Positions 2,704 through 8,129 of a stretch of DNA of 21,560 bases are shown here, piece after piece. The first letter of the stretch is position 1. Each line of letters opens with the position of its first letter. The notes below the pieces were generated by a model. That model made no database searches and was not told the origin of the DNA. It was given only the letters and a program-made list of their open reading frames with translations. The stretch spans positions 1 to 21,560 of the forward strand of contig JAHLWH010000135.1 of the NCBI GenBank assembly GCA_019058015.1. Reading direction: 5' to 3'. Source of the stretch: Promethearchaeota archaeon. Lineage in GTDB: Archaea; Asgardarchaeota; Lokiarchaeia; Sigyniarchaeales; SOKP01. The translations under genes were made by a program, and so were the position numbers.

Positions 2704-2788
2704 GCGGGAATCGCCAAGTCTGGTCAAAGGTGCTGGACTCAGAATCCAGTGGCAAAGGCCTTCGAGAGTTCAAATCTCTCTTCCCGCA
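2704..2788 (+). tRNA. tRNA-Leu(CAG), class II, no intron, CCA not encoded
   Basis: Acceptor stem GCGGGAA/TTCCCGC with discriminator A; D arm GCCAAGTCTGGTCAAAGGT; anticodon stem CTGGA/TCCAG with loop CT-CAG-AA (anticodon 2740-2742); variable arm GGC-AAAG-GCC; T arm GAGAG-TTCAAAT-CTCTC. Confidence 0.95.
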
Positions 2789-2998
2789 CTTCTCCTATAA
2801 AATTATAAAAAGAAATTTAAAATAATCCATTATGTCAACTACTGAAATCATTCCAAATATATTGAAAAAATTCGATTTTTTCTTTTTTTTAATATTTTCT
2901 AACATAAATTCATAGTTGAATATGAAATTATTTTATTGACTATATTCTATATAATATTATAATAATTGATTTGAATCATTAATTAAGAGTTAATTTAA

Positions 2999-6330: not shown

Positions 6331-7467
6331 TTAAAATCTTAAAAGAAATTGATTTCCTAAATGAACATTATTTAAATATTTTTGGGCGATTTCTAAACAT
6401 TCGAATGCTTGCTCTTTTGGGGTTATGGGTAAATCTCTCATCATATAATCCGGATGAAATACTAATAAACTATAGGGAATCTCTTTATTTATCGATGCTA
6501 TAAATTCTGCAATTTTTTCCACTTCCTCGACCGTCGTATAACCTGGTACTAATAATGTGCATCCGCTCATTTCTGGAACATTTAGACGAGTTCCAAAGTA
6601 TTTTTCTGCCAAGAATTTGAAATTTTCATAAGTACGTTTATTTGAAATACCGCATAGAGCAAGATTCAAAATTTCATGGTAACTTTTTAAGTCAAATTTA
6701 ATATTTCCACCACTTTTAAGTGCGATTTGCACGCATTTCTCAACCTGTTTTTTATTTCCACTACCATTCCATTCCCAGCATATACGCATTTTTCTTTTAG
6801 GATCTGTTTGTTGCAATTTTTCTAAAATTTTTTCTGAGGCAGCAATTGTAAATAGAAATTGGCATTCTGGAGTCCCTCCAAAGTAGCATACACATGTAAT
6901 TTTTTTATTTTTAATGAATTCATTCACATAATCATCAATTCTTTTAATGTTGTTTTTAGAAAAGTGTTTATGAGACGCATTTTGACAAAATAAGCAATCG
7001 AAAGAGCATCCATACATAAACGCAGCATAACTATATGTTCCAATCTCTGGACCAGGAAAATTTGAATATTTCGGATAACCATAAGCCGTTCCCGCAGGAC
7101 AAAACCATGCATTACAACAATTGGTTGGATTCATATCTAAATATCCATGCATATATGATAAGGCTCTTGAAGGCATAGGAATCTCTTTAGATTTATCTAT
7201 ATTAATCATTCTTAAACCACAATAACTAATATCTCCTAACTCTAGAGAACATTCATTTATGCATAAATTACAAGAAAATCTTTTTTTTGAATCTTCAATA
7301 TTTGGGGCTATTTCAGGTAAGCCCTCTGTTTTTCTAATTTGTTTATGTATATGTAATACATGCTCCTTTACCTTTTTTCTCTCTTTATTTAAAATACAAT
7401 CTCTGCATATTTGTAATACCTCTGATATCATCGTACCCGTTTTTCCACAAAATTTACATGTTCCCAA
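6331..7467 (-). CDS. Radical SAM enzyme, PFL-activating-enzyme-like / AmmeMemoRadiSam-like, with Cys-rich N-terminus
   Basis: CxxxCxxC motif (GCSFDCLFCQN), YFGG.P, WEWNG, KFDLK, LLVPGY, LL.FHPDY.M.DLP.T and VHLGN; extra N-terminal CxxC pairs and CNLCINEC..YCG. Confidence 0.88.
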   Translation of the reverse strand: MGTCKFCGKTGTMISEVLQICRDCILNKERKKVKEHVLHIHKQIRKTEGLPEIAPNIEDSKKRFSCNLCINECSLELGDISYCGLRMINIDKSKEIPMPSRALSYMHGYLDMNPTNCCNAWFCPAGTAYGYPKYSNFPGPEIGTYSYAAFMYGCSFDCLFCQNASHKHFSKNNIKRIDDYVNEFIKNKKITCVCYFGGTPECQFLFTIAASEKILEKLQQTDPKRKMRICWEWNGSGNKKQVEKCVQIALKSGGNIKFDLKSYHEILNLALCGISNKRTYENFKFLAEKYFGTRLNVPEMSGCTLLVPGYTTVEEVEKIAEFIASINKEIPYSLLVFHPDYMMRDLPITPKEQAFECLEIAQKYLNNVHLGNQFLLRF

Positions 7468-7493: not shown

Positions 7494-8129
7494 TTAATTT
7501 TCCTCTTTTTTTAAAATTAAAAAATTCTGTTCTTTACGTAAACCTGGATTGTCTTGAACTAAAAAGCCATTAAAACCTGCTGATTTGAAATATCTCATAA
7601 GTAATTTAGTATCAACTTCTGTTTCGGGATAAAATTCTAAAATTACTCTTCCATTATTATTTAAAACTTCTTTAAAAATTTTAACAGTTTGCTGTAAAAT
7701 CTTATTTTTTTCATTATTATCTAAAATATCTTCATAAATAAAGTTAAATGAAGAGACAGAAATAATATGGTCAATTTTATTTTCTCTTATCGGTAAATTC
7801 CGAATATCAGCCAAAATCAAATTTGAAGTTTCAATGTTTTTTTTCCGAAATAGATCTATCATATCTGGTAGAATATCAATACTAATAACATTAAATCCCT
7901 CTTCAAGTATGATTTCTGTCGTAAAACCAGTTCCACAGCCTAAATCTAATAATAATAGCTCATCATTATTAAAATCTGAAAAATCACCTAATTTAGAATC
8001 AAATAATAAATCTAAACATCTAGCTGAAGTTGTTTTTTGATTTCGCTCCATCCATTTAGATGAGTTATATTCTATTGCTTGATCTTCGATATATGAGTCT
8101 GGAAATTTAGGGCGCTCTTTTTTTACCAT
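7494..8129 (-). CDS. Class I SAM-dependent methyltransferase, Bud23/WBSCR22-like (candidate SSU rRNA m7G methyltransferase)
   Basis: Motif I LLDLGCGTG, IDI.PDM, AD...LPIR...D..ISVS. Bud23-like N-terminus (P..Y....A..Y.......Q.....R.LDLL) and C-terminus (GRVILEFYP...AGF.G.LV.D.P...K..FLIL). Confidence 0.8.
   Translation of the reverse strand: MVKKERPKFPDSYIEDQAIEYNSSKWMERNQKTTSARCLDLLFDSKLGDFSDFNNDELLLLDLGCGTGFTTEIILEEGFNVISIDILPDMIDLFRKKNIETSNLILADIRNLPIRENKIDHIISVSSFNFIYEDILDNNEKNKILQQTVKIFKEVLNNNGRVILEFYPETEVDTKLLMRYFKSAGFNGFLVQDNPGLRKEQNFLILKKEEN

Follow-up and report, generated by a model that had tools for sequence, protein, structure and literature searches.

This locus raises the question of whether an archaeon carries a true member of the Bud23 family of rRNA methyltransferases and, if so, whether the modification made by Bud23 is older than the eukaryotes. 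Bud23 of Saccharomyces cerevisiae and BUD23/WBSCR22 of human, acting with Trm112 and TRMT112, respectively, are the 18S rRNA (guanine1575/1639-N7)-methyltransferase (KEGG K19306). An earlier note on the DNA analysed here (21,560 nucleotides, hereafter the window) had proposed that the gene at 7494..8129 is an archaeal Bud23 orthologue, which would place the modification before eukaryogenesis.

The published record on this point is divided. Passages of two specialist papers state that no Bud23 orthologue was found in archaea (Bourgeois 2017; van Tran 2018; PMC5372719, PMC6144793) and that the archaeal 16S rRNAs analysed so far have no m7G at the P-site guanine (PMC5372719, PMC6144793). The review "Ribosome Biogenesis in Archaea" does not mention Bud23, and our literature search found no paper that names Bud23 together with Asgard, or WBSCR22 together with Lokiarchaeota. 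A preprint of 2026 puts forward a Trm112 cluster of Heimdall and eukaryotic sequences, and contains neither "WBSCR" nor "m7G" (PMC13734099). The main text of Birikmen 2021 never names Bud23 and reports no ribosome biogenesis factor exclusive to Asgard; its Supplementary Table S10 lists BUD23 in Asgard, Eury and TACK in the unfiltered data and in Asgard alone after abundance filtering. The JGI automatic annotation names several such archaeal proteins "18S rRNA (guanine1575-N7)-methyltransferase". The 2021 table thus already lists BUD23 for Asgard archaea, contrary to the specialist reviews.

The gene (7494..8129, minus strand, ATG start) encodes a class I S-adenosylmethionine (SAM) methyltransferase of 211 amino acid residues; it and its close relatives are referred to as type A. 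Motif I reads LDLGCGTG (residues 61-68), and the acidic SAM-binding residues D85 and D108 (type A numbering) are kept in all groups compared. The protein ends where the catalytic domain of Bud23 ends and has no basic C-terminal extension, as the earlier note had remarked: the Pfam scan gave no match to the PF12589 WBS_methylT tail, which is also missing from the archaeal relatives compared. A putative TATA-like stretch, rich in A and T, can be read some 27 nt before the ATG. The domain databases point to the superfamily, Pfam giving generic class I methyltransferase domains alone (Methyltransf_11, 7.7e-14) and NCBIfam no model above its cut-off, with BioC as the top row, far under its own threshold. 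These generic assignments are what would be expected of a UbiE/BioC-like methyltransferase that resembles Bud23 by chance or composition, and this explanation had to be weighed against the remaining evidence.

A phmmer search of the type A protein against 177,635 distinct PDB sequences ranked yeast Bud23 first (4qtt_B, 7.6e-17; 7wtn, 1.9e-16), human BUD23/WBSCR22 next (7wtw, 1.2e-15; 6g4w, 3e-15) and, in fifth place, a 282-residue chain labelled by its depositors merely as "Methyltransferase-like protein" (9xab, 7.9e-14); the sixth match, MccD (2.2e-6), lies about 8 orders of magnitude below 9xab and about 10 below yeast Bud23. A profile built from the alignment of 19 relatives of the type A protein (A1) recovered Bud23 at 1.5e-25, the next family being represented by PH0226 (5.7e-13), so that the closest competing family in the PDB is some 8-12 orders of magnitude weaker than Bud23. 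The likeness of both protein ends to yeast Bud23, which the earlier note had emphasised, holds for the C-terminus, where the phmmer alignment pairs ISVSSF with ISISAIQW, EFYP with QFYP and AGFNGFLVQDNP with AGFSGGLVVDDP (window and Bud23, respectively). At the N-terminus it is weaker in single-sequence alignments, which begin at residue 59 against the yeast protein and at residue 34 against the human one; the profile alignment spans end to end, with profile positions 14-212 matched to chain residues 14-198. The fold search concurs: with the AlphaFold model of the protein (mean pLDDT 78.3) as query, the first 8 chains returned by Foldseek are all Bud23/WBSCR22 (E-values of 3.5e-15 to 8.5e-13, TM-scores of 0.68-0.83), and the best chain of another kind has an E-value of 3.1e-9.

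Searches in the reverse direction lead back to the same family. Against 1.84 billion representatives, profile A1 gave 23 matches at E-values of 1e-30 or below and 426 at 1e-10 or below, the first proteins with a WBS_methylT tail appearing at about rank 30 (2.8e-27); among the matches listed, 32 of the 62 scanned that had at least 240 residues carried this eukaryote-type tail (E-value of 1e-9 or below). A second profile, made from other archaeal members of the family (A5), retrieved proteins named by their sources as BUD23, WBSCR22 or 18S rRNA (guanine-N7)-methyltransferase at 1e-45 to 1e-40, from spiders, fungi, ciliates, microsporidia and Anaeramoeba. Within the window's own genome the family profile scored 18 of 4300 open reading frames at E-values of 1e-3 or below, with type A first (6.9e-95), a second Bud23-like gene following (type B, 3e-30) and the next methyltransferase far behind (3.2e-12); the three outgroup methyltransferases of this genome that were kept in the mixture-model tree described below fall outside the Bud23-like family (SH-aLRT 89). 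Clustering with UbiE/BioC-like enzymes and a failure to recover Bud23, the outcome named beforehand as contrary to the Bud23 assignment, is not what we found, because the reverse searches do return Bud23, in matches that bear the Bud23-only tail domain or Bud23 names. By sequence and predicted fold, the type A gene is a genuine member of the Bud23 family, and we rejected a generic UbiE/BioC identity as extremely improbable, given the gap that separates Bud23 from other families in the PDB, fold and reverse searches.

Whether it is also the orthologue of Bud23 is a different matter, and the genome holds the second copy. The type B gene (G000:C125:1584-2216, minus strand, where G000 is the window's own genome) starts with GTG, encodes 209 residues in the database call and is divergent to the gene for ribosomal protein eS25 (G000:C125:2333-2650, plus strand, locus L012; Pfam 1.3e-8). 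The match of type B to yeast Bud23 has an E-value of 1.9e-25, spans residues 13-207 and takes in the RPEE start as well as ISISALQW and QFYPK. Against human BUD23, type A (1.2e-15) scores slightly better than type B (6.2e-14), so that the statement that type B is the closer copy is limited to the yeast protein and to the pocket residues discussed below. We collected 80 related loci from named records (type B relatives being L035-L097) and found eS25 divergently upstream of the Bud23-like gene in 55 of them: in all 48 Asgard-named loci, in 7 of the 11 labelled "archaeon" only and in none of the 21 DPANN-named ones. Two order-level relatives carry types B and A in tandem on one strand (L013, G162:C36, 2594-4644; L017, G094:C296), the order in L013 being B, A and then eS25, and this arrangement suggests that type A emerged through a local duplication. 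Among genomes of the window's family, type A has left the vicinity of type B.

The two copies differ at positions that are otherwise nearly invariant. In an alignment of eukaryotic, Asgard type B, DPANN-type and type A rows (18, 7, 9 and 22, respectively), a glutamine and a tryptophan after strand 4, those of ISISAxQW, and a further glutamine before the FYP motif, that of xQFYP, are present in every eukaryotic (18/18), Asgard type B (7/7) and DPANN-type (9/9) row. At the same sites all 22 type A rows have asparagine, phenylalanine and glutamate (N129, F130 and E165 in the window protein); together with W26, which is constant in type A rows at a site where eukaryotes mostly have arginine, these residues constitute a signature of the type A clade. 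The pattern held in a wider set of 145 rows, in which type A rows were labelled by a WMxRxQ motif. There all 39 rows that are clearly eukaryotic read Q-W-Q, as do 10 of 12 additional long ones, the exceptions being QWH and GWQ; N-F-E occurs in 26 of the 27 labelled type A rows (the other being gapped) and in four rows in or beside that clade, to which it is confined over the 145 rows; the sister sequences P0143 and P0155 have an intermediate N-F-Q. In chemical terms, the three replacements (Q by N, W by F and Q by E) are mild. From the comparison of Bud23 with xanthosine methyltransferase, we presume that the Q-W pair and the second Q, placed beside the SAM methyl group in eukaryotic Bud23, hold or line the purine pocket. 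Judged by these residues, the window gene is the more altered of the two Bud23-like copies in its genome. The proposal of an archaeal Bud23 orthologue thus survives as regards family membership, but the window copy appears to be a diverged paralogue, and it is type B that keeps the Q-W...Q residues and the eS25 neighbour.

Phylogenetic trees agree on the groups themselves. A FastTree analysis of 138 rows, which left out fragments shorter than 180 residues, proteins longer than 400 residues and eight two-stretch matches (double-domain or interrupted), recovered a eukaryotic clade (99), a type A clade (91) and a group in which the eukaryotes join type B and further short archaeal proteins (81). 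An IQ-TREE analysis under a site-mixture model, run as a short search on 79 hand-chosen rows with one misplaced outgroup dropped, again supported the eukaryotes (SH-aLRT 98), type A (95) and type A with P0142, P0143 and P0155 (99), and joined the eukaryotes to type A and a Hel/Odin-type group (SH-aLRT 94), apart from type B. The eukaryotic clade is therefore monophyletic in both trees and its archaeal sister differs between methods. Constraining the 7 Asgard type B rows to group with the eukaryotes gave a tree 7.96 log units above the free tree (p-AU 0.672), which implies that the short search had missed a better tree; with type A constrained to the eukaryotes instead, the tree lay 5.53 log units below the free one (p-AU 0.398). 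Neither grouping is rejected by the AU test, the best tree found places the eukaryotes with type B, and the position of the root is unsure because the outgroup branches are very long.

Bud23 depends on its partner, and the earlier note had observed that no trm112 gene lies in the window, which is correct: the sole Trm112 match of the genome is on another contig (G000:C129:60540-61187, equivalent to L001:1042-1692, plus strand) and encodes 216 residues. In this protein some 140 inserted residues separate the two halves of the zinc knuckle, at the site of the central domain of eukaryotic Trm112, and the gene is conserved in 40 of the 41 genomes of the family. Foldseek with the Trm112 model returned nothing at an E-value of 0.001 or below, the 17 best rows, all weaker than this value, being eukaryotic Trm112/TRMT112. 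Co-folding of the type A protein with the genome's Trm112, a check suggested by the earlier note, gave a score of 0.93 against 0.00 for the best control, at a mark that is reached by 116 of 157 solved complexes and by 2 of 215 mismatched pairs; the three runs share 100% of contacts, and the pLDDT of the partner is at least 93. In the predicted interface, strand residues 103-108 of the methyltransferase are paired with residues 174-181 of Trm112, and a beta-zipper between strands is described for Bud23-Trm112 in a passage of PMC5372719. The model passed its controls, but because the Bud23-Trm112 complex is already solved, a pass shows likeness to that complex, not binding.

Directly after the type A gene in the window comes a gene for a radical-SAM enzyme (6331..7467, minus strand, 378 residues, TTG start), which starts 26 nt downstream of the type A stop codon on the same strand and is likely co-transcribed with it. 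The protein has an N-terminal cysteine-rich stretch, a CX3CX2C motif and a Pfam Radical_SAM match (8.6e-12); every NCBIfam model is below its cut-off, the best being of AmmeMemoRadiSam type (45.6 bits against a cut-off of 220 bits), and its best PDB match is PflA (4.5e-5). The pairing recurs. In three other genera, all 10 loci compared have a radical-SAM gene immediately behind type A (two of these loci being truncated at the locus end), and the arrangement is repeated, with spacings of 5-12 nt, in 3 of 5 additional carriers. Overall, 14 of the 16 genomes with type A show it, and the spacing is 5-26 nt where it was measured, in four loci. No radical-SAM match was obtained in two carriers of type A (G019 and G083), the gene was not found in 5 genomes of the family that have no type A, and in the order-level relatives type A stands beside type B and eS25 with no radical-SAM gene. 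The other neighbours in the window are Nre, an inositol-phosphatase-type gene, a PIN protein, PEBP, DUF2961, a heparinase-like gene, Mtd and an FrhB fusion; the search of the window for RNA genes gave a single one, for tRNA-Leu (CAG) (2704-2789, plus strand), and beyond this type A has no ribosomal or translation gene in its vicinity there.

The distribution of the family bears on the claim of an origin before eukaryogenesis. With the type B profile at E-values of 1e-25 or below, Bud23-like matches were found in 48 of 201 genomes of the phylum and in 4 of 27 families (f1, 40/40; f2, 3/3; f3, with genomes of about 1.4 Mb, 3/4; f18, 1/1), and the 153 genomes of the 23 other families gave none. 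Among the 41 genomes of the window's own family, G000 included, type A (E < 1e-78) is present in 36 and type B (E < 1e-50) in 33; eight genomes showed type A only and five type B only, which may mean that the two types can replace each other. One genome of the family (G153) carries two full-length type A copies on separate contigs (C149:4692-5342 and C143:1781-2431). Submitters' names on the relatives include Loki-, Hel-, Hermod-, Hod-, Heimdall-, Thor- and Odinarchaeota as well as Micrarchaeota. These labels could not be matched to our coded families, and four of them ("Hod", "Heimdall", "Thor" and "Odin"), carried by type B proteins that are almost the same in sequence, clash with the restricted distribution; we therefore did not rely on the Asgard-group names. 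DPANN-named records account for 21 of the 80 related loci. From a presence that is patchy among the sampled families and extends to DPANN records, a pre-eukaryotic origin does not follow, and the corresponding part of the earlier note is not established. The same pattern cautions against simple vertical inheritance into eukaryotes.

What, then, does the type A protein do? We consider it somewhat more probable than all other readings taken together that type A is a Trm112-activated, SAM-dependent methyltransferase of a diverged archaeal subfamily of Bud23, with a target other than that of type B. Type A would descend from a Bud23-like gene that was duplicated in archaea of the Loki type, would still bind Trm112 via the usual strand-to-strand zipper, and may methylate a nucleobase of rRNA or tRNA at a site or an atom that the type B enzyme does not use. 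Methylation of N7 of the P-site guanine of 16S rRNA, the task expected of a Bud23, would more likely fall to type B. Several observations sit less comfortably with this proposal: the p-AU of 0.398 for eukaryotes with type A, the score against human BUD23, which favours type A, the mixture-model tree that joins the eukaryotes to type A and a Hel/Odin-type group, the genomes with one of the two types only, the mildness of the three replacements and the two carriers that gave no radical-SAM match.

One alternative is that type A is the archaeal Bud23 orthologue and, together with Trm112, makes m7G at the 16S equivalent of G1575. This possibility, to which we give a minor share of the probability, draws on the first rank of Bud23 by sequence and fold, on the AU test, which does not reject eukaryotes with type A (p-AU 0.398), on a Trm112 in the genome whose predicted complex passes the controls, on the quick mixture tree, where the eukaryotes are nearer to type A than to type B, and on the eight of 41 family genomes that have type A only. 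The 16S gene of the genome holds the conserved GGAAT...TAGTAATCG stretch, in which one guanine is, we take it, the equivalent of yeast G1575; its presence agrees with such a role but is uninformative, because this guanine is universally conserved. This 16S gene is split over two contig ends (G000:C111:40453-41294 and G000:C75:22513-23228) at model position 828/829, with short extra fragments on C111 and C75 that match neighbouring model positions, which could be due to a broken assembly, to an insertion or to the presence of two copies of the gene. The orthologue interpretation is disfavoured by the three residues that are invariant across all 39 clearly eukaryotic rows and altered in every type A row with letters at these sites, by the retention of Q-W-Q, the RPEE start and the eS25 neighbour in type B, and by the log-likelihoods relative to the free tree (+7.96 for eukaryotes with type B against -5.53 for eukaryotes with type A).

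The radical-SAM neighbour invites another proposal, in which type A has left RNA altogether and, in a two-step pathway with the radical-SAM enzyme, methylates a small molecule, a cofactor or a protein. The tightness and recurrence of the gene pair, and its absence from the searches of the five non-carriers, would be explained in this way; the radical-SAM protein resembles glycyl-radical activases and AmmeMemoRadiSam-type proteins, not known RNA modifiers, and the window has no ribosomal or translation gene near type A. A passage of PMC5372719, moreover, describes the active sites of Bud23 and of xanthosine methyltransferase, an enzyme of a small molecule, as strikingly alike. However, all characterised relatives work on rRNA, and the predicted dependence on Trm112 is kept, the known partners of Trm112 being described as modifiers of translation components in passages of PMC6144793 and PMC5372719. 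The order-level relatives that place type A by type B and eS25, with the radical-SAM gene missing, and the two carriers with no radical-SAM match also count against it, and we regard a role away from RNA as rather unlikely. A further proposal, which we offer as a speculation of low probability, joins the pair to the translation apparatus: type A and the radical-SAM enzyme may form a two-enzyme module, derived from the duplicated Bud23 gene, that installs a new ribosome or tRNA modification (for example a methylated and radical-modified purine) in Loki-type Asgard archaea, with type B making the eukaryote-like m7G.

Under the preferred reading, that of a diverged, Trm112-activated subfamily, the window gene would be a neofunctionalised copy, and the origin of m7G1575 is better approached through the type B copy; the pair of type A and the radical-SAM gene then poses a question of its own. 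The presence of two Bud23-like genes and Trm112 in these genomes leads us to predict at least one unmapped RNA mark in Asgard archaea, and since the window gene is the more altered copy, the predicted rRNA mark fits type B better. The question of Bud23 in Asgard archaea thereby becomes testable in cultured strains.

Compared with known systems, type A shares its class I fold and a predicted Trm112 partner with the archaeal Trm112-dependent methyltransferases, H. volcanii Hvo_0019-Trm112 (6F5Z) and A. fulgidus Trm11-Trm112 (6ZXW), which are separate families and have none of the Bud23-type N- and C-terminal elements; in the Foldseek search they follow the Bud23 chains (6F5Z, 3.5e-9; 6ZXW, 1.7e-8), with E-values at least 3,500-fold weaker than that of the weakest Bud23 match (3.1e-9 against 8.5e-13). 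The resemblance to Bud23/WBSCR22 (reference structures PDB 4QTT, 4QTU, 6G4W and 7WTS-7WTW) is more extensive, comprising the class I fold with helices at the N-terminus and strands at the C-terminus of the Bud23 type, an identity of 25-28% across roughly 190-210 columns of alignment, motif I, D85, D108, the S-x-S and FYP motifs, the G-F-x-G...D-x-P end and a predicted beta-zipper to Trm112. Type A differs from these eukaryotic enzymes in its lack of the basic C-terminal WBS_methylT extension, in N129-F130 and E165 in place of the constant Q-W and Q, in W26 where eukaryotes mostly have arginine, and in its predicted partner, a Trm112 of 216 residues with a far larger central insert. Type B is similar to type A in length (about 210 residues), in the absence of the tail and in fold family, with about 30-35% identity between them; unlike type A, it has no radical-SAM neighbour in the loci examined and keeps RPEE, ISISALQW and QFYP as in eukaryotic Bud23.
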